From an uncultured Gammaproteobacteria bacterium (GTDB lineage Bacteria > Patescibacteriota > Patescibacteriia > Magasanikbacterales > UBA922): a stretch of 64,000 bases of DNA. The position numbers and the translations under genes are program-made. Of the stretch, positions 11,906 to 64,000 are shown one piece after another (within the stretch, counting starts at the first letter, position 1; each line of letters opens with the position of its first letter). Where the stretch lies: positions 242,651-306,650 of the forward strand of contig CAZMHV010000001.1 in NCBI GenBank assembly GCA_964566225.1, written 5' to 3'. The notes beneath the pieces are model-generated. The model searched no databases, was not told the origin of the DNA, and saw nothing but the letters and a program-made list of their open reading frames with translations.

Positions 11906-12283
11906 TTATTTACTTTTTGATTTTTTCGAAAATGCTTTTTTGGTAACAGTTTTGGTTTCACTCACTTTTTCTTCTACGGTTGCCTTTATATTTTCCCACT
12001 GAGATAAAACAATTTTTACCACCATTTCTTTGACAGACTCCAGAGCTGGATATTTTTCAAAGTATTTGTCTACTTTTTGTTGTACCAATTTGGTATACGC
12101 AGATTTGGATGATACATATTTTTTATCCATCTTTTTGAGCTCTTTTACGATATCTTCATAAATATCTGCAGCTGCCTCAAGCATTTTATCTCGAGTTTCC
12201 TTGCCCTTTTTGCTTGAAGTGAGCCAAATAAGCCCAGCTCCCAAAAGTCCTCCAAACAAAAGTGTTTTTTTGAGTTTTGACAT
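11906..12283 (-). CDS. small N-terminally membrane-anchored helical protein (YtxH-like), hypothetical
   Basis: N-terminal hydrophobic 'LLFGGLLGAGLIWL', then a charged helical region. Confidence 0.5.
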   Translation of the reverse strand: MSKLKKTLLFGGLLGAGLIWLTSSKKGKETRDKMLEAAADIYEDIVKELKKMDKKYVSSKSAYTKLVQQKVDKYFEKYPALESVKEMVVKIVLSQWENIKATVEEKVSETKTVTKKAFSKKSKSK

Positions 12284-12332
12284 AAAAAAGTTTTAAAGAA
12301 AAAATACTCTCTTCTTTCATTGTATACCTCTC

Positions 12333-13526
12333 TTAGTCTTTCTGCAAACTAGTATACAAGTCAACCGTGGCTGCAATAATCATAGGCCATGAAAAAAGTT
12401 GTTCTGCAGACTCACGTGCTTGCTGTTTCCAATGTTGCATACCTTCTCTATCTGTAAAATATTCTTGTATACTTTGAGCCAAGGCAACAGAATTTTTGAC
12501 TGGTACAGTAAAACCACCCTGTTCTGCTACAGTACGTACGCCAGGTAAGTCAGAAGCAAGGACAGGGACACCACTGGCCATAGCCTCAAGCAAAACTAAG
12601 CCAAACGCCTCATTACGCTCTGTAGAAGGAAATACAAATAAATCAGCCATATGGTAGTATCGTGGGAGTTCATCGTCTTCTACGCGTCCTACAAAGCGTA
12701 CTAGCTCACCAAGCCCCAAAGCCTTGGCCTGCATTTCATAATTACTCCGCAAATCTCCATTCCCCACCAACACTGCCTGAATTTCAACACCTTTATTTTT
12801 CAAAAGTGACAAAGCTTGCAAAAGTACTGGTACACCCTTAAAGTAATGTGCTGTATCCATACCACCTACAAACAGTACCGTAGGGAATGTTGAACGGAGT
12901 GAGTGACGTACAAACAAATCAAGTGGCTTGGGTGCTGGAAAAAATCTTTCGGTATCTACTCCAAAAGGAATCTCGTACCATTTTTCTTTTGTTTTTTGAT
13001 ATATAATCGAGGCATCACCATGTTCAACATAGTCAAATGTACTGGCAATAATAGCATCGGCCACACCCAAAATTTTTGGCATCCAGTATTTGGCATACCA
13101 TTTAAAGACAAGTCCTTTCCAACTCGGAGCACGAGTATCCATGTGATACGTAATTACGAGTGGTTTCTCAGGATTGCGTAATTTCCATTTGCGCACCAAA
13201 TTGGCAGTACCAAAAAATGGATAGTGCAAATGCACTACATCAAATTCATCAAGTTCGCCGCCTATATTTGGTAACCTCGCAGCATTGCCGTATTCGAGAC
13301 TCGGTGTTATGCGTTTGGCATAGTCAATGGTTTCTTGAATTTGAGGTGCATGAGTTTGTGCTGGAGCAGCTTCTTTACTACGTATTTCTTTATTTTCTGC
13401 ATAGAGCGGGGTCAGTACTTCCACTTCATGACCCTGTTGGACCAATTCCTCAGCCATTTGAAATACAACATTCCCCATGCCACCGAAGTATGGAGGGTAC
13501 GCGCAGACAATATGTGCTATTTTCAT
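12333..13526 (-). CDS. Glycosyltransferase family 4 (GT-B fold)
   Basis: 'MKIAHIVCAYPPYFGGMGNVV', C-terminal E-x7-E-like region 'FPSTERNEAFGLVLLEAMASGVPV'. Confidence 0.8.
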   Translation of the reverse strand: MKIAHIVCAYPPYFGGMGNVVFQMAEELVQQGHEVEVLTPLYAENKEIRSKEAAPAQTHAPQIQETIDYAKRITPSLEYGNAARLPNIGGELDEFDVVHLHYPFFGTANLVRKWKLRNPEKPLVITYHMDTRAPSWKGLVFKWYAKYWMPKILGVADAIIASTFDYVEHGDASIIYQKTKEKWYEIPFGVDTERFFPAPKPLDLFVRHSLRSTFPTVLFVGGMDTAHYFKGVPVLLQALSLLKNKGVEIQAVLVGNGDLRSNYEMQAKALGLGELVRFVGRVEDDELPRYYHMADLFVFPSTERNEAFGLVLLEAMASGVPVLASDLPGVRTVAEQGGFTVPVKNSVALAQSIQEYFTDREGMQHWKQQARESAEQLFSWPMIIAATVDLYTSLQKD

Positions 13527-13558
13527 ATAAGTGAACACTTATCGAGATACCATCAGAA

Positions 13559-13888
13559 TTACTTTTTTTTCAAGGCTTTTTCTCTTACCACTTTGGTGAC
13601 ATCTCGGTTCATATTTTCAATTTTGATATGGAGTCGAAACACCAAAAAGAAAAGTGTAATGACAGAAATATAGAGAACAAAATCACTTCCTCTGCCAATA
13701 CCAAAAGCGGATGCAATCATTTGGACACTATTTGGCCACATCACGACCAAAGAAACTCCGAGCCAAAATAAAATCCAAAAAAATGTTCCCTTCACTCCCA
13801 GGGTTCCCTTATTTTTAAGCTGAACAATATTGACAAGAGTAGCAAGTGCAAACAATACTACAAGCAATTGAAAAATGAGAATAGACAT
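13559..13888 (-). CDS. DUF2304-family small membrane protein
   Basis: Two hydrophobic helices, and a position next to GT2, typical of the DUF2304 family. Confidence 0.5.
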   Translation of the reverse strand: MSILIFQLLVVLFALATLVNIVQLKNKGTLGVKGTFFWILFWLGVSLVVMWPNSVQMIASAFGIGRGSDFVLYISVITLFFLVFRLHIKIENMNRDVTKVVREKALKKK

Positions 13889-14555: not shown

Positions 14556-15581
14556 TTATTTAAAAGTTGATCCAAGCATTTCTTTGTTGGCAATGGTATA
14601 GTCAATAGTTTTGCGCAGACCATCTTCCATGCGCACGAGTGGAAGCCATGCTAAATTTTCTTTGGCACGACGCAAATCTGGAATTCCTTTTTTGGACATA
14701 AAACTCAGTGCATTTTCAAAAATAACTTTGGACTCTGAACCAGTCATTTTAATAATTGCTTCAGCGATATCGATAATTCGATACATTTGATCTGAACCCA
14801 AGTTTACCAACGAAATTTCTGGAGGAGATTTCATGAGACGTACGAGTCCATCAACAATATCTGACACATAACACAGGGACTGCGCACTATTTGGATCCCC
14901 ATATACTACCAAGTCTCTCCCTTCAAGTGCATCAATGATAAAATCAGGAATAAGCAACCCATCACGCAACTGCATACGTGGACCATAGGTCGTAAACAGA
15001 CGCGCAATTTTGGTATCAATGCCATGAACCTGTTTATACGTACTCACACAGGTTTCAGCAAAACGCTTTCCTTCGTCATAACAACCTCGAGGAGACAAGT
15101 GATTTACTGCTCCTTCGTCTTGTTCCGCAAAAGAAACCCGGTCTGGACGAGCATCACCGTAGACCACAGAACTTGAAGCAAATACGTACTTAGAACGATA
15201 TTTTACGGCCAAATCAAGCGTAGAAAGCATGGCACTGGAATTTGCCCAAAGTGAGTGCATTTTGAGTGATTCAAAATTTTTGGCACTGGTAGGACATGCC
15301 AGATGATAGATTTCTTGAATTCCTTGAAATTTTACCTTAAATTTATCAAGTTCTTCAAAACTGTCAAGATCTATTGGATTATTGGTATCAAATTTAATAA
15401 ATTCAAAATCTGGGTATTGAAGCAGGTGATCAATATTGTGAATGCTTGAATGTGATAAATCATCTATACAAATTACCTTTGCCTCACGCAGAAGTCTTTC
15501 ACACAGGTGTGAACCAATAAAACCAGCACCACCGGTGACAATGACATTCTTTTTTTCAAATATTGGGATTTCATTCAGCAT
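14556..15581 (-). CDS. NAD-dependent epimerase/dehydratase (UDP-glucuronate decarboxylase / UXS-like SDR)
   Basis: 'VIVTGGAGFIGSHLCERL', catalytic YxxxK context. Confidence 0.8.
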   Translation of the reverse strand: MLNEIPIFEKKNVIVTGGAGFIGSHLCERLLREAKVICIDDLSHSSIHNIDHLLQYPDFEFIKFDTNNPIDLDSFEELDKFKVKFQGIQEIYHLACPTSAKNFESLKMHSLWANSSAMLSTLDLAVKYRSKYVFASSSVVYGDARPDRVSFAEQDEGAVNHLSPRGCYDEGKRFAETCVSTYKQVHGIDTKIARLFTTYGPRMQLRDGLLIPDFIIDALEGRDLVVYGDPNSAQSLCYVSDIVDGLVRLMKSPPEISLVNLGSDQMYRIIDIAEAIIKMTGSESKVIFENALSFMSKKGIPDLRRAKENLAWLPLVRMEDGLRKTIDYTIANKEMLGSTFK

Positions 15582-15598
15582 AGGTTTAAATTCAAATA

Positions 15599-17725
15599 TT
15601 ATTTTACAAATGGAACCACAAAAAAATTATTTGTAGAAGCATTTTTGAGTGGAAGTAAAAATTTTATATCTAACCCTTTACCAAATACCGCATACACACC
15701 ACGACCACCATTTTTTTCATTGGCCAAAATTTCATATTTTCCATCACTGTCAAAGTCATCAAAACTAATATTTGCTTTTTCTTCTTTATTCAAAAATTGA
15801 AAAATCGGTGTACGCACGATAAGTTTTCCATTGTTATCATAATACCTCACCCAGAGTGTATGTTCTGCAATAATAAAGGCTGCGTATTCACCAATGCCAT
15901 CACCATCGACATCTCCATAAAAAAGTCCACCAAGCTCTGTTTTGGGTGATAATTCTGTTCTACGAAGCAATTCTCCCCTGCCTTTATACTCATCCAAAAA
16001 CACCTGTGTCCCTTGTTTATACAAAACCGCAATAACTTCTTTATCAAGCACAGCATCATGCTTTCTTGTAATACTTACACCTGTATGCTTTTGAGTACTG
16101 GTCACTGAAAACAATTCATTTCCATTTTTGTCAGAAACAGAAAAAAGTAATGTATCTGCTACTTTTGGTGCGAGCACTACCTCTGGTTCGCGATCACCAA
16201 TAACATCAGCAAAAATCAAAGTAGACGGAAAATTGAGCATCTTTCGAAAACCACCTATTCGTTGAAAATTTTTGTCAAAAGTTCGAATTACTGAGTATCC
16301 ATCGGCTCGAAAATATAATACCCCATAGCGACTTTCAATACTTTTATTTTTATATCGTGCAAAACTTTCAAGTCCTTGGAAAAAAACTAAATTCTTCTGT
16401 TCTTTGGCAGTCCCGAGTCCACTCGAGAGATAATCATACATGTCGCCCACACCAGAGTTGCCTTCAAACAAAAACAAACCCAATGACTCAGGAACAGCTA
16501 TAGGCGGAAGTGGTTGCGGAGTCACGAGGGGAGGAACCGGAGACTGGGGTTGTTTAATATCTGGTGCAGGTGCAGGAACAACTTCGACGGCAACAGGTGG
16601 AGGCGCCAATACACGAGGACCTAGAGTTGGAACAACACCAGAAAGTGCCGCTACTACAGCTTTATCAATTTGGAGTAAACCTCTTCCAAATAAATGTGCA
16701 TAGACACCTTCGTCAACAGGAGGTGTTTTGTGGACAGTTCCAAGCAAGGTATTATAAATTTCTGTAGCTTTCCAACTTGGTTGCAATGCTTTTACCAAAG
16801 CAGCCGCACCACTCACAAACGGAGCAGAAAAAGAAGTCCCATTCCAATATCCACCATACAAATCTGGAAGCCCTACCGTGATATCGAACCTCATATCACT
16901 CAAAATATGGACTCCAGGGGCAGCCAAATCAATACAACGTGACCCATAATTAGAAAACGATGCCAAATGATGACTTTCACCTACCGCACTCACACCGAGA
17001 ACCAGTTGCTTATCAAGATACGCATCAACACAGGCAGGAAACCGTGGAGTCGCATCCAAAAATCGACTATCATTCCCCGCAGCAGCGACCACCACTACTC
17101 CTTTGTCTGAAGCATATTCAAAAGCACGCACAAGTTCAGGCTCACTTGAATCCCCTACCATGCTGATATTGATAACACTTGCACCATTATCAACAGCGTA
17201 ACGAATGGCACGACTCAGTAATACCAAATCACCAGAACCACTATTATCAATAACTTTTATATTCATGAGACGAACCTTCCAATTGATGCCTGCTCCAGCA
17301 ACACTATTGTCACCCACACCACCAATAATACCTGCGACAACAGTGCCATGATGAAAAATACCTTCTTGTTTTTGTACTTCAGTCAGATTGGCAACACTTG
17401 GAACTGGATCATTGTTGTTGCCTACAAAATTCCATCCCCATACATCATCGACATATCCATTGGTATCGTCATCAATACCATTGTTTTCAATTTCTTTTTG
17501 GTTCTTCCAGACATTATCTTTTAAGTCAGGGTGATTGGCATCAAAACCATTATCAATCACAGCAACAATCACATCTTTGGAGCCAGTGGTATAGTCCCAC
17601 GCACCATATGCTTTTACATCAGTATATCCCCACTGTTGTACATACGGATCACTTGAAAGTTTGGCAAACAACTCATGTGGGAACATCAATGCAATAAGAG
17701 TGACTATAACAAGCTTTGTGTTCAT
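15599..17725 (-). CDS. Secreted S8-family subtilisin-like serine peptidase with Pro-rich linker and FG-GAP/VCBS-like C-terminal repeats
   Basis: Signal peptide; Asp 'VAVIDNGFD', His 'HGTVVAGIIGG', Ser 'GTSFSAPFVSGAAALV'; 'YGDVDGDGIGEY' and 'FDDFDSDGKYEIL' repeats. Confidence 0.85.
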   Translation of the reverse strand: MNTKLVIVTLIALMFPHELFAKLSSDPYVQQWGYTDVKAYGAWDYTTGSKDVIVAVIDNGFDANHPDLKDNVWKNQKEIENNGIDDDTNGYVDDVWGWNFVGNNNDPVPSVANLTEVQKQEGIFHHGTVVAGIIGGVGDNSVAGAGINWKVRLMNIKVIDNSGSGDLVLLSRAIRYAVDNGASVINISMVGDSSEPELVRAFEYASDKGVVVVAAAGNDSRFLDATPRFPACVDAYLDKQLVLGVSAVGESHHLASFSNYGSRCIDLAAPGVHILSDMRFDITVGLPDLYGGYWNGTSFSAPFVSGAAALVKALQPSWKATEIYNTLLGTVHKTPPVDEGVYAHLFGRGLLQIDKAVVAALSGVVPTLGPRVLAPPPVAVEVVPAPAPDIKQPQSPVPPLVTPQPLPPIAVPESLGLFLFEGNSGVGDMYDYLSSGLGTAKEQKNLVFFQGLESFARYKNKSIESRYGVLYFRADGYSVIRTFDKNFQRIGGFRKMLNFPSTLIFADVIGDREPEVVLAPKVADTLLFSVSDKNGNELFSVTSTQKHTGVSITRKHDAVLDKEVIAVLYKQGTQVFLDEYKGRGELLRRTELSPKTELGGLFYGDVDGDGIGEYAAFIIAEHTLWVRYYDNNGKLIVRTPIFQFLNKEEKANISFDDFDSDGKYEILANEKNGGRGVYAVFGKGLDIKFLLPLKNASTNNFFVVPFVK

Positions 17726-53932: not shown

Positions 53933-55262
53933 ATACTTCTCGAACAATTTTTCTGTCGTCCCAAGGAATAATTTTTCCTTTCACCACCATGCCCTGTTCA
54001 CTGCCCTTGCCTGTAATAAGTACCAAATCTTGTGGTCCTGCCATTTCAAGGGCCTTTTCAATGGCCTCTTTGCGATCCAAAATTTTAAATATATTTGTGC
54101 CTTCTTGTTTGCCTGTTTTCAGTACAGCAGAAGCCACATCATCAATAATGGTTTGAGGATTATCGTCGTATGGGTCTTCGTCGGTAATAATACACATGTC
54201 AGCATGATTCCCCACAAACTCACCCACGGTAAAACGACGCTGCACATCTCGGCCACCACCAGTAGAACCAAATACATGAATCACACGTTTGGGTACCAAA
54301 AGTTTTACTACTTCGTACAATTTTTGAATTGCCACAGGCTCAAATGCATAATCCACAATAACCTGAAATCCTTTTGCTTCGGCTTCTTTGATAAATTCCA
54401 AACGTCCTTCTGGTCCCTGCAAATTATTCACAGCTTGTTTTAACAGTGCCTCGGAAATTTGTAACCGATGCGCCACAGTGAGTGCTGCCAAAATATTTGA
54501 CACATTGTGTTCACCATAGAGTGGTGCATGAAAACTGTTTCCATTCCATACAAAGTGCAAACCATTTTTATCTGTGACAATATTTGCATTTGAACTTTGA
54601 AATTGTAATTTTTCATCAAAAGAATACTGCAAAAATTCATTGGCATATTCATTGTCGCCGTTGACCACAGCAATTTTTGGAATAGTATTTGAAAAAATCT
54701 TTTGCACTTTTGGTGTGAGCGCACGTGGTCCAGTCCATCGTCTTTGTGTGCCATGCACATTTTTGCGTCGAAGATTTGCAATGTGTTTGAAAAAAGAAAG
54801 TTTGGCGCCTTTGTAATTTTTGAAACTGCCATGTGACTCGATGTGTTCTGGATACAAATTGGTGAGCATGGCAATGTCGTAATTGATAAACCGGTGACGA
54901 TGCTGCACTACACCTTCGGATGTGGTTTCCACAATGGCAATGTCACATTGTTTGTTTACCATTTCACGCAAATACTTTTGAATTTGCATTTTGCCAAGCA
55001 TGGTCATTTTTTGGTCGTTGAGTTTCATTTCACCATTGATGTAAAAATCAATGGTAGAAAGTGAGCCGACTTTGAAACCAGCAGACTCCAAAATTTGTCG
55101 TAGAAAAAAAGTGGTGCTTGATTTGCCACTGGTTCCCGTAATACCAATCACCAGCAAACAATCTGCAGGGTGATGGTATTCGAGCGCGCCATACCAAGCA
55201 TAGTACAAATGCTTGAGGTTACGAATAGGTTTGGGGAGGAGTTTTTTGATGAGGGTTTTCAT
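53916..55262 (-). CDS. Mur ligase family protein, probably UDP-N-acetylmuramoyl-tripeptide synthetase (MurE-like, lacking the N-terminal domain)
   Basis: 'VIGITGTSGKSSTTF', 'NLYPEHIESHG', 'GRLEFI', 'DYAFEP' match MurE/Mur-ligase motifs. Confidence 0.6.
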   Translation of the reverse strand: MKTLIKKLLPKPIRNLKHLYYAWYGALEYHHPADCLLVIGITGTSGKSSTTFFLRQILESAGFKVGSLSTIDFYINGEMKLNDQKMTMLGKMQIQKYLREMVNKQCDIAIVETTSEGVVQHRHRFINYDIAMLTNLYPEHIESHGSFKNYKGAKLSFFKHIANLRRKNVHGTQRRWTGPRALTPKVQKIFSNTIPKIAVVNGDNEYANEFLQYSFDEKLQFQSSNANIVTDKNGLHFVWNGNSFHAPLYGEHNVSNILAALTVAHRLQISEALLKQAVNNLQGPEGRLEFIKEAEAKGFQVIVDYAFEPVAIQKLYEVVKLLVPKRVIHVFGSTGGGRDVQRRFTVGEFVGNHADMCIITDEDPYDDNPQTIIDDVASAVLKTGKQEGTNIFKILDRKEAIEKALEMAGPQDLVLITGKGSEQGMVVKGKIIPWDDRKIVREVLKKTS

Positions 55263-55441
55263 AGGATTGATTTATTTTAGCGGAATTAAAGAGAAAATAC
55301 AACCCATTTAAAAAAATTTGACAAAAAAATAAAGTTCGTATAAAGTTGAATTATATGAATAAACAAATCTCATCAATCCAAACTACCACCACAACCTGCC
55401 CTCTTGGCTAAGGCTGTGGTTTGATATCTCTATCTTCCAAA

Positions 55442-55468
55442 CTGCCCTAGCCGGGGCAGTTTTTGTTT
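55442..55468 (+). terminator. Terminator-like hairpin followed by a T-run, upstream of the GC-rich small ORF
   Basis: CTGCCC-loop-GGGCAG then TTTTTGTTT. Confidence 0.35.
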
Positions 55469-55539
55469 ATCGCGATATGCATCGATGCGGAATGGTCCGT
55501 GTCGATGCAGGGTCGCGAGAAACAGAAGAAGGAGGAAAT

Positions 55540-55887
55540 GTGAGACCTGATCTCTACCATCCGTGGTCGCCAGACGTGGGGCAGATGCTTCACGTCGGAA
55601 GCTGGCAGGTGGGATGTGTGCCACCGAGGGAGATGAAAGTGGAGGTCACGGTGCCTCCCGTGCAAAAGAAAGGACGGACGGCGTTCGCAGAGTGGCTCAA
55701 GGGGGTGAGCCAGTCGGAAAGCCGGATGCGAGTGCCAGGCGAGATCATCACCATGGGCGAGAACGTCTGCTCATGCTACATTTGCACGTGTGGATGCTAT
55801 AACCAATCGCGAGGAGGGATGCAGTACTTCATCGAAAAGCGTGAAGGCGTGTTCGTTCACGACTTCTGCGGAGAATCGGTGGAGTGA
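55540..55887 (+). CDS. GC-rich small cysteine-cluster protein (about 115 aa), hypothetical
   Basis: GTG start 4 nt after a perfect AAGGAGG; about 58% GC against an AT-rich background; motif 'CSCYICTCGCY' plus 'DFCGE'; followed by a strong GC hairpin terminator. Confidence 0.35.
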   Translation: MRPDLYHPWSPDVGQMLHVGSWQVGCVPPREMKVEVTVPPVQKKGRTAFAEWLKGVSQSESRMRVPGEIITMGENVCSCYICTCGCYNQSRGGMQYFIEKREGVFVHDFCGESVE

Positions 55888-55935
55888 AAAAAAAGGCGGC
55901 CGAGGATGTTCCCGGCCGCCGCTTCGATTTTGTTT
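55887..55935. terminator. Bidirectional rho-independent terminator with an 8-bp all-GC stem
   Basis: A8-GGCGGCCG-loop-CGGCCGCC-GCTTCGATTTTGTTTT between convergent genes. Confidence 0.7.
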
Positions 55936-56282
55936 TAGAGGGCATTTACAAATCCCTGAAGAAAAGCAATATCTTCACCTGTACCAATTTTATTTTTTTT
56001 GAGAATTTCAATTACCTTTTGTTTGTAATCTTTATCTTTTTGAGATTCTTTTTCAAGGCGTTTAAAAATGTCTGTGGTATAATCTGATAGTTTTCGATCA
56101 ATATATGTCTTCAGATTATGTTCTAACTTCACGTTTTCTGATTTCATCTCTGTTCGTAAACCATCGATTTTTCCATCCATCATATCTGACATGGCCGGAA
56201 TCAAAAAATCATTAGCAAACTCTACCAATAAATCTTTCATTTCTTCTTTTGTTGCAGGAGAATTATTTTTCATATACATCAA
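55935..56282 (-). CDS. hypothetical helical protein (115 aa), co-transcribed downstream of the translin homologue
   Basis: AT-rich native-type composition; no recognisable motif. Confidence 0.45.
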   Translation of the reverse strand: MMYMKNNSPATKEEMKDLLVEFANDFLIPAMSDMMDGKIDGLRTEMKSENVKLEHNLKTYIDRKLSDYTTDIFKRLEKESQKDKDYKQKVIEILKKNKIGTGEDIAFLQGFVNAL

Positions 56283-56316
56283 TTATAATCATCCTTTTCT
56301 TTTTCTGTCAAGTCTG

Positions 56317-56901
56317 CTACTTTCCACCACGCAGTGTCGTCTCATACACCACCACCTCAAGTTTATGCGCCGCCTGTTTGGCCTGGTCAAATTTGTTGCG
56401 TAAATATTTGGTGAGATTAAATTCCATGAGTTCACCAATAATTTCTTCGGCAGCAAGGGAACATTTTTTTACTGTGTTCATGTCGTGATTGGTTGCGGCA
56501 CGAATGGCGTAGCGAAAGAGTTCGCCTGGAACATCACAGAGACCTGCCAAATAAATTTCACCTGGCACATCAAGTCCTTTGACTTCTCCCATTTCTCCGG
56601 TTTTCAAAAATTGGTAAAATAAACTGGCTTCCACATATTCTTCGAGTGCTGCGGCAAAAACACCTTCGTCTTGAATTTCTGGATTCTTTTTATTGCGTTT
56701 GACCAAATCTTTCATGATGGATTCCACGAGTTTCAACTTTTGTTCGGCCTCTTTGACTTCACCTCGGTGAAGATCAAAAATAACTCGCTTGGCATGGTGC
56801 AAAGCATCGTCAGAACTTTTAATAACGTCCCGGCGGATGAGGGCGTATTCATGAAGATTTTTCTTGAGTTTTTCTACGTAATTCTTTTTGAGCATAGGCA
56901 A
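56317..56901 (-). CDS. Translin-family protein
   Basis: 'EEYVEASLFYQFL', 'YLAGLCDVPGELFRYAIRAATNHD' and 'LRNKFDQAKQAAHKLEVVVYETTLRG' align with the human translin C-terminal region ('YLVGVLQLASELSRLSVNSVTAGD', 'LRKRYDGLKYDVKKVEEVVYDLSIRG'). Confidence 0.6.
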   Translation of the reverse strand: MPMLKKNYVEKLKKNLHEYALIRRDVIKSSDDALHHAKRVIFDLHRGEVKEAEQKLKLVESIMKDLVKRNKKNPEIQDEGVFAAALEEYVEASLFYQFLKTGEMGEVKGLDVPGEIYLAGLCDVPGELFRYAIRAATNHDMNTVKKCSLAAEEIIGELMEFNLTKYLRNKFDQAKQAAHKLEVVVYETTLRGGK

Positions 56902-56958
56902 AAATAAGGGTCAATAAGTGCCTGTATTATATACTCCCCACCCCTTTTGGTCAAAAAC

Positions 56959-56987
56959 TTGACTTTTTTTTGAAAAAGTTTTATTAT
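56959..56987 (+). promoter_or_regulatory. sigma70-like promoter TTGACT-N17-TATTAT upstream of tRNA-Lys
   Basis: Exact 17-nt spacer; the tRNA begins 21 nt downstream. Confidence 0.5.
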
Positions 56988-57008
56988 AAAGCGGTTCAAA
57001 AAAACCAT

Positions 57009-57081
57009 GGGATGGTAGCTCAGTCGGTAGAGCAGTAGCCTTTTAAGCTAATGGTCCTGGGTTCGATCCCCAGCCGTCCCA
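57009..57081 (+). tRNA. tRNA-Lys (anticodon TTT)
   Basis: Acceptor GGGATGG/CCGTCCC, D-arm GCTC-AGTCGGTA-GAGC, anticodon loop CTTTTAA, T-arm CTGGG-TTCGATC-CCCAG, discriminator A; no encoded CCA. Confidence 0.8.
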
Positions 57082-57084
57082 CAC

Positions 57085-57120
57085 AAAAAAATACCTCGAG
57101 AAATTCGAGGTATTTTTTAT
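57085..57120 (+). terminator. Rho-independent terminator after tRNA-Lys
   Basis: ATACCTCGA-GAAAT-TCGAGGTAT followed by TTTTTT. Confidence 0.7.
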
Positions 57121-57239
57121 TATATTTTTCAATCCCGCACTCCTAGAATATGTCGAACAGTCAACAGATTCTGCTGCTGCGGGATCGACGAAATTTCACC
57201 TTCTCCCCCGCAACAACACCGGCATTGCACCGGGGGGGG

Positions 57240-58145
57240 TCAGTAGTCGATCTGGTTCGCCGGGAGCGGATCGATGAGCCTGATCTGGCGGAGGCGACGG
57301 AACTTGTAGGCGCCGGCCGTCACCAGAGGCTGAGTGACCTCCGGGTGGATGAAGATCGGCATGGAGAACCGATCCCGGCAGGCCGCGCGCGGGTTGACCA
57401 CGCGGTGCGTCACCGAGGGGATCTCGCCGAACGTGTGCATCTGCAGCATGTCACCAGGGTTGACGATGATCGACCCCATGGGGTTGTTGGCGTCCAGCCA
57501 CACGCCGTCGCGCGTCTTCACCTGCAGGCCCGGCTCGTCCGACGGCACCAACAGAGTGACCAGGTTGATGTCCTCGTGATCACCCGAACGGGGCACTTCG
57601 GGGTCCGAGCCGTCCAGCGCCGGGTAGTGGATGACGCGGAGCAGGTTCTCGCCCTTGGCGATCCAGTTGAGGAAGAAGTTCGGATCGCGACCGAGGTGCA
57701 TGGCGAGCGCCTTCAGGATCGTTCCACCAGCACAGGCCTTGAGCGCCGCGTGAAGTTCCAGAGCCGTGGGCCCGAAGTCCGGCACCTCGACCGGGAACTC
57801 GTTCCGAACGATCGACGCCGGATCGTTGACGTGCCAGAAGGCCATGCGGTTGGCCCGGGTCTGCCCCACCGAGACTTCGGTGTCCGCGGGCGTGAAGCCC
57901 ATCTGGTGACCCTCGGCCACGAACTCGTACCGCAGCCGCTGCTCCAGGGTCATGCGGGTGAGGAAGACCTCACGCGCGAGCTCGAAAGCCCGGGCGAGAA
58001 GATTCTCCTGCACGCCGTGTCCGACGATGGAGACGAAGCCGTGCTCACGGAAGATACGCCCGAGCGCGTCCGCGATTTCCATGTCTCCCGCTTCGTCTTC
58101 TCCGAAGCGGTGCATGTCAAGAATGGGAATACCACTCAATTTCAT
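57240..58145 (-). CDS. 2OG-Fe(II) oxygenase, isopenicillin-N-synthase-like family (GC-rich, foreign composition)
   Basis: N-terminal DIOX_N-like 'IPILDMHRF', HxD 'HEDINLVTLL', distal His in 'THRVVNP'; about 62% GC. Confidence 0.7.
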   Translation of the reverse strand: MKLSGIPILDMHRFGEDEAGDMEIADALGRIFREHGFVSIVGHGVQENLLARAFELAREVFLTRMTLEQRLRYEFVAEGHQMGFTPADTEVSVGQTRANRMAFWHVNDPASIVRNEFPVEVPDFGPTALELHAALKACAGGTILKALAMHLGRDPNFFLNWIAKGENLLRVIHYPALDGSDPEVPRSGDHEDINLVTLLVPSDEPGLQVKTRDGVWLDANNPMGSIIVNPGDMLQMHTFGEIPSVTHRVVNPRAACRDRFSMPIFIHPEVTQPLVTAGAYKFRRLRQIRLIDPLPANQIDY

Positions 58146-58214
58146 TACCCTTTCAATTTGAGTTCAATTATCCCAGGCAACCACGCCCGAGAACCACCCG
58201 CAAGAATACAAAAA

Positions 58215-58240
58215 ATACTTTTGATTGTCAACAAAAGTAT
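58215..58240 (+). promoter_or_regulatory. Perfect 9-bp inverted repeat ATACTTTTG-N8-CAAAAGTAT (operator candidate) overlapping the -35
   Basis: Seen in the divergent intergenic region between the oxygenase and the nucleoside phosphorylase. Confidence 0.4.
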
Positions 58241-58268
58241 TGACAAACAGAAGAATTTTCTTTATTCT
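58240..58268 (+). promoter_or_regulatory. sigma70 promoter TTGACA-N17-TATTCT for the nucleoside phosphorylase gene
   Basis: Consensus -35, 17-nt spacer; AGGGGA RBS before the ATG at 58300. Confidence 0.5.
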
Positions 58269-58299
58269 GCACCTACACCAACAACCAGGGGAAACCCAA

Positions 58300-59109
58300 A
58301 TGAGTGAGAAAGCTGTCTCGGCAGCCCGTCCGATCATCGGTGGACTGACCATGCACCTCAAGACCGCGCCGGGCTCGCTGGCGCCGCACTGCCTCATGGT
58401 GGGCGCGGCGGGGCGTGCACGGACGATCGCGCAGGAGTACCTGACCGGCGCAGTCAAGGTGGGCGGTGACGACAACCGCTACTACGACTGCTACACGGGC
58501 GAGTACAGGGGGTTGCCGATCTCCGTGGTCACCCACGGGATCGGCATGCCTTCGATGCTCATCGCGATCGAAGAGTCCCGCATGTCAGGTGCCCAACGGT
58601 ACCTGCGAATCGGGTCGTGCTCCACGCTCCGGCGAGACATCAACATCGGTGACGTAGCCATCGTGGCCGGCGCGCTCCCGCCGGGCGCGACAGACATCGA
58701 CGGGTTGGTGAATGCTGACCCAAGGATGTACCACGCGCTTCTCGAAGCTGCAGACAAGATCGTCAAGGTGCCCTATGCCTACGGCATCTGCGTGACCACC
58801 AACGACTTCACTGGTGGGCAGGGCAGGCCGGACGCAGAAGGCTTCCTGGACGAGGAGGACAAGCTCGATCACGAAGCGAGGATCAACGGCGGCGAGATCG
58901 ACTTCTACGACATGGAGAACTACGCGCTGTTCAACCGGGCCAGGACTCGTCGCACCGCGAGACGCGCCGGCTTCATGGCCGGCAGCGTGATGGCGGTATA
59001 CGGCAACCGCATCACTGACCAGCTCGTCGAGCACGCCGGTGACAAGGAGACCATCGAGACGGCCCTGCAGGCCATGGTGCTGCTCGCGCACGACCACCCC
59101 CTCCCCTGA
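58300..59109 (+). CDS. PNP/UDP-family (family-1) nucleoside phosphorylase/nucleosidase (GC-rich, foreign composition)
   Basis: 'HCLMVGAAGRARTIAQEYL' resembles the DeoD 'VVLMPGDPLRAKYIAETFL' region; 'ISVVTHGIGMPSMLIAIEE' and 'GSCSTLRRDINIGDVAIV' resemble the family core. Confidence 0.65.
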   Translation: MSEKAVSAARPIIGGLTMHLKTAPGSLAPHCLMVGAAGRARTIAQEYLTGAVKVGGDDNRYYDCYTGEYRGLPISVVTHGIGMPSMLIAIEESRMSGAQRYLRIGSCSTLRRDINIGDVAIVAGALPPGATDIDGLVNADPRMYHALLEAADKIVKVPYAYGICVTTNDFTGGQGRPDAEGFLDEEDKLDHEARINGGEIDFYDMENYALFNRARTRRTARRAGFMAGSVMAVYGNRITDQLVEHAGDKETIETALQAMVLLAHDHPLP

Positions 59110-59217
59110 CCTTGCCTCGGCAAGGGGACACGCGGGTGGCATCAAGGACGACGTCACCCGGACTGTGCATTTCATTTTTGAAAAATACAGTTTGGAGATG
59201 TGATGTCGTCTCAACAT

Positions 59218-59256
59218 AAAAATAATCCCGTTTTCTGCGGGATTATTTTTTTATCT
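59218..59256. terminator. Bidirectional rho-independent terminator
   Basis: AATAATCCCG-loop-CGGGATTATT followed by TTTTTTT. Confidence 0.65.
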
Positions 59257-59264
59257 TTCAAATT

Positions 59265-59678
59265 TTAATTTGCCTTCTTAAACTTCACCTGAAACACTGG
59301 CTCATAATTTTGTTCGTATTCATCAGTTACAGAAACAGTCTCCCCTTTCATTACTTGAGTCATAGCAATGTCACTGAGCATTTCGTTGTCACTTTCAATG
59401 TCAATTTTCAAATCTTCAATTTGTTGAAATTCGTTGTGAAAATCTTGGCGAATGGTATTTTCAATTGATTTTTTCTTTTCACGAAGGGTCTTGAGTTTTT
59501 CCATGGCCTCAACATATTCTTGCACGGTTTTGAGCGCATCACTGTATGATGTTTTTAAATCTTTCATTTTCTTTTTATTTTTTTGAATGCGCACGAAAAT
59601 TTCTTGGATGTTTTGCATAGAGTCATGAAGAAGTAAAAATGATTGCTCTATTATAGATGAAAAAATGATTCTGGTCAA
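59265..59678 (-). CDS. hypothetical coiled-coil protein (AT-rich, native composition)
   Basis: Lys/Glu-rich helical ORF between two GC-rich genes. Confidence 0.45.
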   Translation of the reverse strand: MTRIIFSSIIEQSFLLLHDSMQNIQEIFVRIQKNKKKMKDLKTSYSDALKTVQEYVEAMEKLKTLREKKKSIENTIRQDFHNEFQQIEDLKIDIESDNEMLSDIAMTQVMKGETVSVTDEYEQNYEPVFQVKFKKAN

Positions 59679-59813
59679 AGAACAAAAAAACTGACTCTAT
59701 ATGAATCAGTTTTTTTGTAATTTGTGAAAACAAAATTTTCTTTGCACAAATCTCCCCCGGCCGCCTTGCACGAAATTGTGAACAGGGCGGGCCGGTGAAT
59801 ACGTTGTTGTGGG

Positions 59814-60896
59814 TTACTGAACTGCCGAGACAGCCTGAGCATCAGCAGGTGCACAGATACTCGTCATCACCTCGTGAGTCCTGGCCATCTCCGGAAATGA
59901 CGGAAACTGAAACCCTGAGAGTGTCTGAACATGCGAGGACTTGTCGAGCTTGAGCAGCTTGGTGATATCCTCCATCTGCTCGGCACAGAAAATATCGTCG
60001 AGCACAGCCTGACGAACCGGTGTTTCCTCATACGCCGCTTGATAGGCCATAGCTTCGGCCACCACAAACTGCATATACTGCTCGCGGATGTCTCCAATGC
60101 AGAGTGAGATCTGATTGGGATTTTTCACCCCGTTCAGATGAAAATCTGCGAGCAAATTGAGCGCCACAACGGAACGAATCACGAACTGTCCATTGGCATC
60201 CCTCGGCAACGCCTCCCGCAGATTCCAGTGCAACTGTGCACACTGGGCTTCGCGGTGACGTGTACGAAAGCACTCCAACTTCTTGGCCGCCGCTCGACTG
60301 GTCTTGGCTGCACTCGTCAGCACACCTTCGCACTGAGCTCGAGTGCTCTCGGTCAGACTGACCTTCTCCGTGATCAGTTTGGACGAAGGTGCAAAGCCCC
60401 GCCACTCCCAGTCTTCACTGTAAACCTTACATGGGAGATTCCTACAGACGGTGAGCAGATCAGCGTCCGAGACCACCGCCTGAACCGAGGACGAGACCGC
60501 CACGGTTGGTAGCGCAGGTGGAAGAGGTGGAGTTGGCGCTGTCGTATCAGGTTCCAGAGACGGAGGCGAAACCGGCGATGATAGCATCACCGGAAGGGAC
60601 TTCGCCGGGACAGGAAGAACCAGCGTCGGCTCCGAAGAGATTGCGCCCAGCAACCACGCGATGTCATCCAAATCCCCTGCAGCATGGAAGTCTTCGACCA
60701 CCACCTCCTTTTCGTCTTGCGAACTGCCCCCCGAGGCTCCCAGGAAGTATCCACCTCCAAACGACACAGCCCAGAGAAACAGAACGCTGCGGACGACGTT
60801 CCGAAGAGCCTTTCCACTCAACTCGATTTTGTTGCTCACGACAGACTCCCCTCGCGCCTCGCGCGAATTGAAAAAGTGAAGCATCAGTCGACCCAT
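59814..60896 (-). CDS. hypothetical membrane-anchored protein with Pro-rich linker (GC-rich, foreign composition)
   Basis: About 55% GC; N-terminal TM 'VVRSVLFLWAVSFGGGYFLGA', linker 'PTPPLPPALP', Cys-containing C-terminal domain. Confidence 0.45.
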   Translation of the reverse strand: MGRLMLHFFNSREARGESVVSNKIELSGKALRNVVRSVLFLWAVSFGGGYFLGASGGSSQDEKEVVVEDFHAAGDLDDIAWLLGAISSEPTLVLPVPAKSLPVMLSSPVSPPSLEPDTTAPTPPLPPALPTVAVSSSVQAVVSDADLLTVCRNLPCKVYSEDWEWRGFAPSSKLITEKVSLTESTRAQCEGVLTSAAKTSRAAAKKLECFRTRHREAQCAQLHWNLREALPRDANGQFVIRSVVALNLLADFHLNGVKNPNQISLCIGDIREQYMQFVVAEAMAYQAAYEETPVRQAVLDDIFCAEQMEDITKLLKLDKSSHVQTLSGFQFPSFPEMARTHEVMTSICAPADAQAVSAVQ

Positions 60897-61045
60897 TCGA
60901 CCGAAAATACAACAGAAAAAATTTTCTCCTGTACATTCGGCCGAATCTATAACAACGTATTTTTTCTCCTCATAAAAAGAACAACTTAGAAAATTCTAAG
61001 TTGCTGAGTATAGCAAAAAAAACTTATAAAGTCAAGAAGCAACGC

Positions 61046-62230
61046 TTAAAACCGATACAACTGCATAAGACGCTCCAAATACTTCTCCCTCGACAACATC
61101 TCAATCCCTGCTCGGCCAGTCATACCCATTGTACAAACCTCGCCTGGGTGCTCCACACACCACTGCAATTTTTCACGCAAAGAATTTTCATTTCCTGCCA
61201 CAAAAGTAAAACCATTCTCACCCTCTTTAATCAGCTCGGCAATCCCTTCAATATTACTTGCCAGCACCGGCGTTTTGTACGAAAAACTTTCAAAAATAAC
61301 TGTGGGAGAATTTTCGTAGCACAGAGATGGCACGACCGTGATATCGACAGTTTCAAATACGGCAGATAATTCCGAGTGTTCAAGTCGTCCATGAATTTTT
61401 ATATTTTTTTCTGCATCAACAAGTGTATGCAGCTCTTGCAATTTTGAACCCGTACCAACAATGTGCAATTCACATGGCACAGAACTTTTTTTGACAAAAT
61501 CACAAAATGTTTTGGCCAAAAATAAAACCCCTTTGTGTGTTTCAATTTGCCCTAGATACAAAAAGCGAAACACATCATTTTCTTTTTTAACAATATCTGC
61601 CACATCCAGCATCACGGGATTGCGCAGCACCACACGCTCAGAATCAGCAAAAAATCCCCACTTCTCATAGAACTGCAACAAAAATTGCGAAGGAGAAATC
61701 ACTACATTTGGTGAACCCAAAAGTCGTCGCATAATTGCAGCATAAACGCGAGTAACAAATCCACGATAACGCCATGAATTTTCTTTTTGTTTCAAAATAA
61801 TGCCACTTGGTTCTACCAATTGCACATCATGCACCGTGTGCACATGCAAAATTTTGAGTGAACGAATAACACGTGAAATAAGAAATCCAATTCCCATAAA
61901 ATTGTGTGTGTGCACCACATCTGGTTTTTCTTGTACCAAAATCTTTTTTATTGATCGAGCAGAGTCAAAATTCCAAATATCAACAACATGCCACCACAAC
62001 CGAGAGAGCGCTGAATGTTTGTGAGCGTCCAAATACGAAAAAATATTTTGTGGACAAAGACGATAAATAGTCACATTCCCCTTTTTTTCTACTTCAAAAT
62101 TTGGTCCAAGCGTAATAACCACCACTGAGTGCCCAGCCTCAACCAAACCCTGGACAGTCTTAAAAACCACCTGTTCGGCTCCGCCGCGGGCATAAGGTGG
62201 GTATAAATTGTGGACGATAGCGACTTTCAT
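61046..62230 (-). CDS. Glycosyltransferase family 4
   Basis: 'MKVAIVHNLYPPYARGGAEQVV', C-terminal 'VVPSLCYENSPTVIFESFSYKTPVLASNIEG'. Confidence 0.8.
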   Translation of the reverse strand: MKVAIVHNLYPPYARGGAEQVVFKTVQGLVEAGHSVVVITLGPNFEVEKKGNVTIYRLCPQNIFSYLDAHKHSALSRLWWHVVDIWNFDSARSIKKILVQEKPDVVHTHNFMGIGFLISRVIRSLKILHVHTVHDVQLVEPSGIILKQKENSWRYRGFVTRVYAAIMRRLLGSPNVVISPSQFLLQFYEKWGFFADSERVVLRNPVMLDVADIVKKENDVFRFLYLGQIETHKGVLFLAKTFCDFVKKSSVPCELHIVGTGSKLQELHTLVDAEKNIKIHGRLEHSELSAVFETVDITVVPSLCYENSPTVIFESFSYKTPVLASNIEGIAELIKEGENGFTFVAGNENSLREKLQWCVEHPGEVCTMGMTGRAGIEMLSREKYLERLMQLYRF

Positions 62231-62320
62231 ATAGAGCAGTATACGCAATCAAGCGAAATTTCGCAATGGGGCAAAATCCTTGAAAAGAAGGCTGTTTTAC
62301 GGTAAGATACTATTTACCCT

Positions 62321-63745
62321 ATGCCAAATGAAATAGAACGAATTCCACCTCAAAATATTGAAGCCGAAATGTCACTGCTCGGTTCTATTTTGCTTGATAA
62401 AGAAGCTATTCTCAAAGTAGCTGATCTTATTGACCAAGATGATTTTTACAAAAATGCACACCGAGATATTTATGGCACCATCATGGAACTCTATGGTCGC
62501 AATGAACCCGTAGATTTGCTTACTCTCAGTAACCGCTTGGAAGAAAAAAAGATGCTCGAACGAATTGGTGGACGTACCTACTTGGTAGAAATTTCCAACG
62601 CAGTTCCAACATCATCACATATTGTAAACTACGGACAAATTATTCGTCGCAAATCTTTGCTGCGCCGACTTATTCAAGCAGCATCATCGATCAACGGACT
62701 CGGTTACCAAGAAGAAACAGAAGATGTCGACAAAATTTTGGATGAAGCGCAACAACAACTCTACGGAATTTCCTCAAAACACATTAAACAAAGTTTTACC
62801 CCCATTCAAAACATTTTGAGTGAGGCATTTGACCGCATTGACGAACTGCACCGTGAAAAAGGCAAACTGCGTGGGGTGCCAAGTGGATTCAAAGACCTCG
62901 ATAACTTACTCGGTGGTTTTCAAAAATCTGACCTTATTATTCTCGCAGCTCGTCCATCTGTGGGTAAAACCGCGCTGACACTGGACTTTGCACGTGCCGC
63001 TGCAGTGAAATACAAAGTACCTGTTGGCCTCTTTTCACTCGAAATGAGTAAAGAACAGCTCGTTGACCGTTTGCTCAGTTCTGAAGCAGGTGTGGACTTG
63101 TGGAAACTGCGTACCGGAAACCTCTCTGACCGACCAGACAGTGATGACTTTCCTCGTATTGGTCAGGCCATGGGTGTACTTTCGGAAGCACCTATCTATA
63201 TTGACGACAGTGCAGGCAACAACATTATGCAAATTCGTACCAAAGCCAGACGGTTGCAAGCTGAGCACGGACTTGGTATTATTATCATCGACTATTTGCA
63301 GCTCATGGAATCACACAACAGTAAAGGCAGTGACAACCGTGTACAAGAAGTCTCTGAAATGAGTCGTGGACTCAAAAGTTTGGCCCGTGAACTCAATGTG
63401 CCAGTAATTGCACTGTCACAGCTTTCTCGTGCGGTAGAACAAACCAAACCAGCGATTCCAAAACTGTCTCACCTTCGTGAATCTGGGAGTATTGAACAAG
63501 ATGCCGATGTGGTTATGTTTATTTATCGTAAAGCGGCTGACCGTAACTACCGACTGGAGGACATTCCACCAGATGAACGTCACATTGGTGAAATTCATGT
63601 AGCCAAACACCGTAATGGTCCAACTGGCATGGTCAAAGTATTCTTTGATGAAACGCGTGCGAGTTACCGCAACCTCGACATGCACTTTACGCCTCCGACT
63701 TCAAGTGCATCGCCTCCAGCAAAACCCGCTATCCCACAATTTTAA
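62321..63745 (+). CDS. dnaB: Replicative DNA helicase DnaB
   Basis: Walker A 'ARPSVGKTALTL', 'IIIDYLQLM', 'ALSQLSRAVE', 'LRESGSIEQDADVV'. Confidence 0.9.
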   Translation: MPNEIERIPPQNIEAEMSLLGSILLDKEAILKVADLIDQDDFYKNAHRDIYGTIMELYGRNEPVDLLTLSNRLEEKKMLERIGGRTYLVEISNAVPTSSHIVNYGQIIRRKSLLRRLIQAASSINGLGYQEETEDVDKILDEAQQQLYGISSKHIKQSFTPIQNILSEAFDRIDELHREKGKLRGVPSGFKDLDNLLGGFQKSDLIILAARPSVGKTALTLDFARAAAVKYKVPVGLFSLEMSKEQLVDRLLSSEAGVDLWKLRTGNLSDRPDSDDFPRIGQAMGVLSEAPIYIDDSAGNNIMQIRTKARRLQAEHGLGIIIIDYLQLMESHNSKGSDNRVQEVSEMSRGLKSLARELNVPVIALSQLSRAVEQTKPAIPKLSHLRESGSIEQDADVVMFIYRKAADRNYRLEDIPPDERHIGEIHVAKHRNGPTGMVKVFFDETRASYRNLDMHFTPPTSSASPPAKPAIPQF

Positions 63746-63768
63746 TATATTATTTTTAATACAGAACT

Positions 63769-64000
63769 ATGTTTCAAAAACTCAAACAGTTCAAAGACCT
63801 TCGTGACCAAGCCAAACACTTGCAAGACGAACTTGAAAAAGAAGTCATCAGTGTGAATGCTGCGAGTAACCAAATTGTCCTTACCATGAACGGTAACCTC
63901 AAAATCACTGGACTTGCTATCGATGACGCACTGCTCTCTCCATCTATGAAAACCAAACTTATTGATGGCCTCAAAGATGCTCACGAAGATGCCCTCAAGA
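63769..64000 (+). CDS. YbaB/EbfC-family nucleoid-associated protein, 3'-truncated by window edge
   Basis: 'MFQKLKQFKDLRDQAKHLQDELEKEVISVNAASNQIVLTMNGNLKITGLAIDDALLSP...DGLKDAHEDALK' matches the YbaB family; the ORF runs off the window and is not in the ORF track. Confidence 0.6.
   Translation, partial: MFQKLKQFKDLRDQAKHLQDELEKEVISVNAASNQIVLTMNGNLKITGLAIDDALLSPSMKTKLIDGLKDAHEDALK

Follow-up and report, generated by a model that had tools for sequence, protein, structure and literature searches.

A GC-rich divergent gene pair for a predicted 2-oxoglutarate oxygenase and a uridine-phosphorylase-like enzyme beside tRNA-Lys in a Magasanikbacteria-like Patescibacterium

The DNA analysed here (termed the window) is a stretch of 64,000 nucleotides (nt) from contig CAZMHV010000001.1 of assembly GCA_964566225.1. 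Directly 3′ of its tRNA-Lys gene lies a GC-rich island, or cassette, of two divergently transcribed genes, one for a predicted Fe(II)/2-oxoglutarate (2OG) oxygenase and one for a predicted nucleoside phosphorylase similar to uridine phosphorylase (Udp). The divergent pair was found in six loci and four contexts, i.e. at the tRNA-Lys locus, between L21 and RecR, between SecY and Adk, and at a tRNA-Glu locus. This adjacency of oxygenase and phosphorylase suggests a functional nucleoside-salvage module. We consider it fairly probable that the cassette is a compact, self-contained two-gene module of this type, in which the oxygenase would oxidise a nucleoside and the phosphorylase would cleave it.

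The predicted host is a Magasanikbacteria-like Patescibacterium (candidate phyla radiation). This assignment comes from the top named matches of DnaB (positions 62321–63745), where the named relatives at 72%–76% identity are Candidatus Magasanikbacteria or Patescibacteria; a 325-kb NCBI contig carries an identical DnaB. Positions of the features in the cassette and around it are listed in Table 1.

The divergent pair and its predicted enzymes

The oxygenase is assigned to the IPNS-like branch of the 2OG-Fe(II) superfamily by profile, by residues and by its predicted double-stranded beta-helix fold. The Pfam scores are 52.1 bits for DIOX_N (PF14226, cut-off 27.3) and 58.8 bits for 2OG-FeII_Oxy (PF03171, cut-off 23). 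The metal triad is H190-x-D192...H247, and 2OG would be bound by R259-x-S261 together with R170 and Y174. All of 44 homologues have H190, D192, H247, R259 and S261, and these residues align with the relatives in PDB. The AlphaFold2 (AF2) model has a predicted local distance difference test score (pLDDT) of 95, and Foldseek matches it at probability 1.00 (TM score 0.7–0.82) to 3oox, to thymine-7-hydroxylase (T7H), to ethylene-forming enzyme and to IPNS. These best matches are, in detail, CC_0200 of Caulobacter (3oox, uncharacterised), the T7H of Neurospora (TM 0.82), an ethylene-forming enzyme of ancestral type and an IPNS-like protein from Pseudomonas. The original prediction, which was made without database searches, had named an IPNS-like 2OG/Fe(II) oxygenase with an HxD...H motif, and this assignment holds.

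Close relatives of the oxygenase are few. In a search of 5.8 billion proteins only a handful (P0001–P0005) show 56%–64% identity and all others have 42% or less. A neighbour-joining tree places the window-type oxygenases in one clade (termed clade A), and those of two of the other pairs, L010 and L019, in another clade of the same family. The ratio of nonsynonymous to synonymous substitution rates (dN/dS) against the near relative L005 is 0.12 for the oxygenase and 0.16 for the phosphorylase, i.e. both genes are under purifying selection.

The phosphorylase matches PF01048 with 57.5 bits (cut-off 25.1). Its best NCBIfam match is uridine phosphorylase (TIGR01718) at 100 bits, which is below the 280-bit equivalog cut-off, and it is classified as Udp-like but not as an equivalog. 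The best PDB match is a uridine phosphorylase, 3qpb (E-value = 5e-19). Equivalents of Udp R30, R48, R91, T94 (as Ser), F162, Q166, R168, M197, E198 and R223 are kept. A BLASTP comparison with an E. coli Udp sequence, which was checked against the known residue numbers, aligns phosphorylase residues R60, R103, S106, F170, Q174, R176, M205, E206 and R237; R39 is the equivalent of Udp R30. In Udp, Arg30, Arg48, Arg91 and Thr94 bind phosphate, Met197 and Glu198 bind ribose, and Gln166 and Arg168 are specific for uracil. An alignment of the 14-member subfamily has R39, R60, R103, F170, Q174, R176, M205, E206, N236 and R237 invariant, and among the Udp-contact equivalents only the T94 position (Ser/Thr) varies. 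Membership in the PNP/UDP family, as first proposed from the sequence, is borne out by profile, structure match and residues. The Udp-like subfamily is rare, with 8 representatives at an E-value of 1e-30 or less among 1.84 billion proteins, and 4 of the 4 loci that are informative have an oxygenase alongside. The names of its protein clusters gave no taxonomy.

A check for co-occurrence in other genomes had been recommended in the original prediction; it shows that the pair recurs. At the tRNA-Lys locus it is present in the window, in L005 and in L001 (JGI 3300004210), where the gene order is syntenic (DnaB...GT1...pair...tRNA-Lys...Translin-MurE). In L010 the pair lies between L21 and RecR, with 36% identity in the oxygenase and 39% in the phosphorylase, and is adjoined by a GC-rich gene for a PyrE-like phosphoribosyltransferase. 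In L019 (GCA_964388785.1) it interrupts the ribosomal superoperon between SecY and Adk (identities of 35% and 37%). Across the pairs the identities thus go down to 35% for the oxygenase and 37% for the phosphorylase. Two new loci came from a metagenome scan with the oxygenase clade alignment.

The pair in L016 (Ga0233425_10000630), at the tRNA-Glu locus, differs in its second member. A clade-A oxygenase (54% identity) is divergent from PunA, a purine nucleoside phosphorylase (303 bits on NF006054, cut-off 218). Two oxygenase clades and two non-orthologous phosphorylase types (Udp-like and PunA) are therefore found in one divergent geometry. The pairing is, as far as could be searched, not described as an operon, as the original prediction had supposed. 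In the cassette, enzymes of known superfamilies occur as a conserved divergent pair within a small genomic island; it is the oxygenase-phosphorylase partnership that is undescribed.

Some details of these loci may be added. The pair in L019 is preceded by a methyltransferase gene (L019 positions 3902–6810), and the SecY–Adk order is otherwise very conserved. A comparison of L016 with the syntenic L002 shows a 1-kb indel (L016 positions 6885–7923), which corresponds exactly to the GC-rich PunA gene upstream of the oxygenase. Three oxygenase leaders without an adjacent phosphorylase have a hairpin motif, GCGCTGAAA-N-A-N-TGCGC, just upstream of the ribosome-binding site (L003 ~6550–6575, L008 ~535–560 and L014 ~1470–1495). 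It may represent a small cis-regulatory element.

Table 1. Features of the cassette and its surroundings in the window
Feature	Position	Strand	Description
Promoter-like site TTGACA	55318		in GC-rich patch 55318–55930
Mini-ORF, 18 codons	~55355–55411		in same patch; five consecutive Thr codons
Terminator-like hairpin	~55441–55470		in same patch
GC-rich ORF, 115 aa	GTG start 55540		in same patch; ribosome-binding site GAAGGAGG; Cys-rich CSCYICTCGCY motif
Strong terminator	~55897–55922		in same patch
Bacterial Translin-family protein	56317–56901	-	PF01997, 70 bits; L001 counterpart at 15146–15724
tRNA-Lys (anticodon UUU)	57009–57082	+	ARAGORN; Rfam tRNA 70 bits
Intrinsic terminator hairpin of tRNA-Lys	57086–57118	+	last element of host composition before the cassette
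GC-rich island	57125–59170		two genes, 3′ of tRNA-Lys
3′ untranslated tail, oxygenase unit	57125–57239	-	imperfect inverted repeat 57129–57188; small hairpin 57219–57233
Spurious antisense ORF, 385 aa	57150–58307	+	public call on L017 in place of the oxygenase
Predicted Fe(II)/2OG oxygenase, 301 aa	57240–58145	-	IPNS-like fold; DIOX_N + 2OG-FeII_Oxy
Oxygenase promoter TTGACA-N17-TATTCT	58231–58203	-	left arm of inverted repeat I1
Perfect 9-bp inverted repeat ATACTTTTG-N8-CAAAAGTAT	58215–58240		unique in window; loop holds oxygenase -35 box
Back-to-back -35 boxes TTGTCAA-N8-TTGACAA	58225–58246		unique in window; 0.06 expected by chance
Phosphorylase promoter TTGACA-N17-TATTCT	58240–58268	+	right arm of inverted repeat I1
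Predicted Udp-like nucleoside phosphorylase, 269 aa	58300–59109	+	NP-I / PNP_UDP_1
Spurious antisense ORF, 210 aa	58585–59217	-	called opposite the phosphorylase
GC-rich 3′ untranslated tail, phosphorylase unit	59110–59170	+	hairpin CCTTGCC-TCG-GCAAGG
Terminator hairpin	59218–59250		common to cassette and convergent host gene orf137
orf137	59265–59678	-	host gene
orf360	59814–60896	-	GC 0.56, GC3 0.62; no Pfam match
ORF, open reading frame; aa, amino acids; GC3, GC content at third codon positions.

Composition, age and origin of the island

The GC content of the island is 0.61–0.67 in 300-bp windows from 57200 to 59150. This gives z = 5–6 against a background of 386 windows (mean GC 0.40, sd 0.044, max 0.53), and it confirms the jump after the tRNA-Lys terminator that the original prediction had pointed to. 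The excess is mainly synonymous. GC3 is 0.85 in the oxygenase and 0.84 in the phosphorylase versus 0.35–0.41 in neighbouring host genes, and codon choice is reversed between cassette and host: TTC 100% versus 11%, ATC 94% versus 14%, and AAG 85% versus 14%. Both cassette proteins are poor in lysine and rich in Ala, Arg and Gly. The foreign composition is thus real.

GC richness extends ~60 bp beyond each stop codon, with values of 0.63 (57189–57239) and 0.66 (59110–59170), and ends on the right at ~59170. The left edge, at ~57125, is where homology with the relative L005 starts. The tRNA-Lys and oxygenase genes face each other with their 3′ ends. Between the two -10 boxes the promoter core has a GC content of 0.24, and the whole 154-bp spacer one of 0.40. 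The island is two GC-rich transcription units that are joined through an AT-rich promoter core.

The original prediction took the cassette for a horizontally acquired one and expected top matches from high-GC lineages. Neither a recent acquisition nor a GC-rich source is what was found. Between the window and L001, DnaB shows 72%, Translin 60% and the oxygenase 64% identity, with nonsynonymous divergence (dN) of 0.31 for the oxygenase, 0.24 for DnaB and 0.35 for Translin. Between L002 and L016, dN is 0.12 for the oxygenase and 0.05–0.135 for the flanks, and nucleotide identity is 77.7% and 75.5%, respectively. Since syntenic, diverged relatives carry the cassette with a dN that matches the flanking host genes, it is not recent. 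Homologues of similar GC content in close relatives had been named beforehand as a sign of native genes; they are present, and on these terms the cassette would count as native.

The composition is shared by the relatives. Oxygenase GC3 is 0.74–0.87 in 8 hosts, whose background GC is 0.29–0.47. At four-fold sites C<->G differences amount to 17%–30% in the cassette versus 3%–7% in host genes, and A/T-ending codons stay rare. For the window and L001 the four-fold classes are 0.40 for the same G/C, 0.30 for C<->G and 0.23 for S<->W, and these values are close to estimated full saturation at a stationary GC-rich composition. Synonymous sites that are near saturation, with 80%–87% G/C-ending codons in hosts of 29%–47% GC, are hard to fit to simple amelioration. 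There are two readings of this: either the composition has been held inside AT-rich genomes, or each lineage recently took up the genes from a GC-rich reservoir that is unsampled and has diverged in parallel with the hosts.

No oxygenase relative above 42% identity was found outside AT-rich contigs among the 5.8 billion proteins. Scans of 185,579 GTDB species genomes, with a single sequence and with the clade alignment, gave only a 27% relative in Variovorax; the IMG/VR scan gave no close relative, and PLSDB plasmids and INPHARED phages gave no relative above 35% identity. No GC-rich lineage, plasmid or phage with a close relative came up as a donor. It is a caveat that mis-calling of genes (see below) conceals copies in AT-rich hosts, though not in GC-rich ones.

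We infer an ancient horizontal transfer into the lineage at a tRNA-adjacent hot-spot, with the bias for G/C-ending codons actively maintained since entry. Selection on the mRNA or on codon choice could maintain it, as could a biased fixation limited to the transcription units. If true, this would be a gene-specific maintenance of composition, bounded by two transcription units, which is not covered by standard amelioration theory. Taken as a whole, i.e. long vertical inheritance in AT-rich Patescibacteria, a maintained G/C-ending equilibrium and a new oxygenase reaction on free nucleosides, the proposal is tentative and rather doubtful. A point against the module reading preferred here is that integrase-type targeting of the same tRNA could mimic the vertical inheritance suggested by synteny and dN.

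A recent acquisition, in which a GC-rich donor fragment would have entered at the 3′ end of tRNA-Lys and would be unameliorated, with nothing maintaining its GC content, is unlikely. In its favour, the codon usage is typical of a high-GC organism, the proteins are Lys-poor and Ala/Arg/Gly-rich, the cassette adjoins tRNA genes whose 3′ ends have other insertions, and different contexts in L010 and L019 show that the pair has moved. There is also an exception to the even divergence described above: between the window and L005 the cassette has a synonymous divergence (dS) of 0.58–0.69 versus 0.13–0.42 in the flanks, and identity is 100% for DnaB and 99% for orf137 versus 90% for the oxygenase and 83% for the phosphorylase. 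This suggests allelic exchange or a locally raised substitution rate. Against a recent entry are the presence of the cassette at the same locus in L001, and of the oxygenase at one locus in L002 and L016, with matching dN; the near-saturated four-fold sites, for which donors would need a divergence that mirrors that of the recipients; the negative donor searches; the lack of an integrase and of att repeats; and the AT-rich promoter core, which is host-like and conserved.

The role of the tRNA genes is related to this, and the association with them is a real one, if indirect. In the window, L005 and L001 the cassette has a tRNA-Lys at its side, and in L002 and L016 a tRNA-Glu. The cassette abuts tRNA-Lys in the window, and the L002 oxygenase is 220 bp from tRNA-Glu. 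Other insertions lie between tRNA and cassette: 1.6 kb of AT-rich sequence in L005, a GC-richer SDR gene in L001, and 4.6 kb in L016. The L005 insertion marks the 3′ flank of tRNA-Lys as an apparently active insertion point. The original prediction had regarded the tRNA 3′ end as an integration site. It is a variable hot-spot with extra insertions, but integrase and att repeats are lacking: the cassette is not bordered by direct repeats of the tRNA end, and no recombinase domain was detected in the cassette or in the extra open reading frames of L005. The L005 insertion (positions 64–1660) has two open reading frames, of 441 aa and 80 aa, on the minus strand, without a Pfam match. The L016 insertion (positions 9068–13676), as seen by comparison with L002, is AT-rich and lies between the oxygenase and tRNA-Glu.

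The cassette resembles tRNA-associated genomic islands in its position directly 3′ of a tRNA, in its foreign composition and in the further insertions at the same place in L005, L001 and L016. Unlike these integrase-mediated elements it measures only 2.1 kb, is transcribed from host-type promoters of its own, and is common to diverged syntenic relatives instead of being strain-specific. It also has no integrase, no duplicated tRNA 3′ segment and no att repeats.

Proposed reaction and comparison with known enzymes

Bacteria of the candidate phyla radiation lack de novo synthesis of nucleotides and depend on nucleosides that they scavenge. The following scheme is proposed for the module. Two back-to-back sigma-70 promoters of host type would drive the two genes. 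The oxygenase would oxidise a non-canonical free nucleoside before phosphorolysis, and this oxidation would make the nucleoside a substrate of the phosphorylase. The likeliest target is the sugar, i.e. 2′-hydroxylation of a deoxynucleoside or oxidative removal of a methyl group. The phosphorylase, of a dedicated subfamily and of the hexameric type, would then release the base and ribose-1-phosphate for salvage. Substrate and order of the two reactions are proposals. Oxidation of the sugar is favoured because the sugar is the common denominator of the pyrimidine-type and purine-type partners.

Two known reactions may serve as precedents. A PhyH-family 2OG dioxygenase demethylates free 2′-O-methyl nucleosides for salvage (PMC12709175), and IPNS-fold halogenases act at C2′ of dAMP and dGMP, with GMP as a hydroxylation by-product (PMC11186838).

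Several observations weigh against the scheme. Clade-A oxygenases without an adjacent phosphorylase are found in L002, L003/L004 and L007. On the short contigs L008 and L014 no phosphorylase was detected, and the L014 oxygenase adjoins an HD-domain protein. The pairing is thus frequent and not obligatory (five clade-A loci are without an adjacent phosphorylase). The Udp-like partner has residues of the uracil type, and the partner in L016 is of the purine type; this mismatch would point either to sugar-directed chemistry or to a specificity that differs by clade. The closest characterised structure is T7H, which would instead favour oxidation of the base, and a base-directed, T7H-like reaction is possible. 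Finally, an enzyme that depends on O2 is unexpected in a largely fermentative lineage.

The two genes could also be unrelated neighbours, with an oxygenase that acts on a non-nucleoside metabolite, like most IPNS-family enzymes, and an ordinary salvage phosphorylase that travels along. The bacterial IPNS-like family is without an assigned function, as are its closest structures (3oox and 3on7), one half of the loci with a clade-A oxygenase have no adjacent phosphorylase, and the thymine-binding residues of T7H are not kept (Y217 to Ile, N294 to His), all of which would be in accordance with this. It is nevertheless quite improbable in view of the six loci in four contexts, in which oxygenases of two clades combine with phosphorylases of two non-orthologous types. 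The divergent geometry and the shared promoter region are constant, an oxygenase adjoins each informative member of the rare Udp-like subfamily, and a PyrE-like phosphoribosyltransferase has been added in L010.

The salvage module can be compared with four known systems. The first is the T7H of fungal thymidine salvage (NcT7H, PDB 5c3p–5c3s; PMC4787775), which has the same DIOX_N + 2OG-FeII_Oxy fold (E-value = 1e-21). T7H residues R190, Y194, R286, S288 and F292 correspond to R170, Y174, R259, S261 and F265 of the oxygenase, and both enzymes are linked to pyrimidine nucleoside cleavage. The base in T7H is sandwiched by Phe292 and Tyr217, with additional contacts to Asn87, Glu122 and Asn294 (PMC4787775). 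F265 matches the base-sandwiching F292, and the residues shared with T7H are family-wide and not specific to it. Identity is only 24%–25%, no iso-orotate decarboxylase is present near the cassette, and the host is a bacterium and not a fungus. The oxygenase was rejected as an orthologue of T7H, since it has I193 for Y217, H267 for N294 and Q81 for N87.

The second comparison is with FJS / PHYHD1, the 2′-O-methyl nucleoside demethylases (PMC12709175). There too a 2OG oxygenase returns free modified nucleosides to salvage, which is the logic proposed here. In contrast to the oxygenase of the cassette, FJS / PHYHD1 belong to the PhyH family and not to the IPNS-like one, and no paired phosphorylase has been described for them. 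Thirdly, AdaV-type C2′ halogenases (PDB 7v52; PMC11186838) are of the same fold family (E-value = 5e-8). They act at C2′ of deoxynucleotides, with hydroxylation of dGMP to GMP as a side reaction (PMC11186838). Their motif is HxG/A versus HxD here, the sequences are distant, and they belong to actinomycete antibiotic clusters.

The fourth is E. coli Udp, all of whose phosphate, ribose and uracil contacts are kept in the phosphorylase, with T94 as Ser. Identity is only 28%, and the GDP motif before R30 is changed to GAAG. Unlike Udp, the phosphorylase belongs to a separate rare subfamily with an oxygenase alongside at all informative loci.

If the scheme is true, it would represent an O2-dependent route in the candidate phyla radiation from scavenged nucleosides, of DNA or modified RNA, to ribose-1-phosphate and bases. 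The conserved module would be a new oxygen-dependent step in nucleoside scavenging, and it would offer a first way into the function of the IPNS-like oxygenases of a large bacterial branch that is uncharacterised.

Promoter region, gene calls and neighbouring patches

The divergent arrangement and the TTGACA-N17-TATTCT promoter of the phosphorylase are as first described. Not noticed in the original prediction were the identical promoter on the minus strand, the GC-rich 3′ tails and two further GC-rich patches, at 55400–55930 and 59814–60896. The two mirrored promoters form a 29-nt imperfect inverted repeat with arms 8 nt apart. Their back-to-back -35 boxes are kept in all six pairs, with the same spacing in L005 and L001 and a slightly different one in L010, L019 and L016. 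This is the only promoter feature that is conserved across all divergent pairs.

The perfect 9-bp palindrome had been regarded as a plausible repressor operator. It is indeed present and unique in 64 kb (0.08 expected even with 3 mismatches), covers the oxygenase -35 box and abuts that of the phosphorylase. Both arms are kept in L005, a near-identical relative, so that conservation there is little informative; L001, L010, L016 and L019 lack the palindrome and keep only the -35 pair. No regulator gene is present within or adjoining the cassette, and the palindrome is part of the 29-nt mirror symmetry that results from one promoter being present twice in inverted orientation. A repressor operator is neither needed nor shown, and one that controls both promoters seems improbable. 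Another back-to-back promoter pair is found at 56926–56987, where Translin, on the minus strand, has TTGACC-N17-TATAAT and tRNA-Lys, on the plus strand, has TTGACT-N17-TATTAT. Because of this similar pair, the promoter layout of the cassette is ordinary for the host.

The sharp change in composition, bounded by gene ends, might bring to mind an assembly chimera or contamination, in which a GC-rich fragment of another organism was misjoined, but this is refuted for all practical purposes by independent contigs that cross the junctions: Logan contig L017 (SRR16481186, 32 kb) is 100% identical to window positions 54321–64000 through both of them, L006 (SRR16481187) spans the right one, in L005, which comes from a different sample, the cassette has the same neighbours on both sides (84% identity), and the same kind of island is present in L001, L010, L016 and L019.

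The cassette genes are frequently mis-called. Long antisense open reading frames are placed opposite both genes (Table 1), and by comparison with tblastn the same type of mis-call is found at L001 9022–9912, L005 1692–2741, L010 4883–5896 and L019 4922–5842. A called 296-aa open reading frame beside the L001 oxygenase was considered as the phosphorylase and rejected, as it is an artefact of the antisense type; the phosphorylase is encoded on the opposite strand. In genomes with such calls the oxygenase, and sometimes the phosphorylase as well, is missing from protein databases. When the oxygenase was looked up by exact match, the gene-position index gave nothing; this is because of the antisense mis-calls and not because of absence. 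The module has been overlooked because callers trained on an AT-rich host place antisense open reading frames across it. Other GC-rich accessory genes of AT-rich metagenome-assembled genomes may be hidden in the same way.

Two other GC-rich patches are found near the cassette. One, at 55318–55930 (0.55–0.58 GC), lies between a MurE-like Mur-ligase gene and orf115, and its elements are listed in Table 1. For its predicted RNA fold z is -6.8. Pfam, PDB and Rfam gave no match for the patch, and Rfam over 55200–56100 gave only chance-level hits. It is absent from the syntenic L001, where the Translin gene abuts the MurE-like gene directly; in the window orf115 and the patch intervene. The Translin family is mostly discussed in eukaryotes and archaea.

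The other patch is orf360. By eye, its translated sequence has a hydrophobic N-terminus (a possible membrane helix) followed by a Pro/Ser/Thr/Ala-rich stretch. It is 51% identical to its L005 counterpart (dN/dS 0.41), in comparison with 94%–100% for the flanking orf137, GT1 and DnaB, and it looks like a fast-evolving surface protein.

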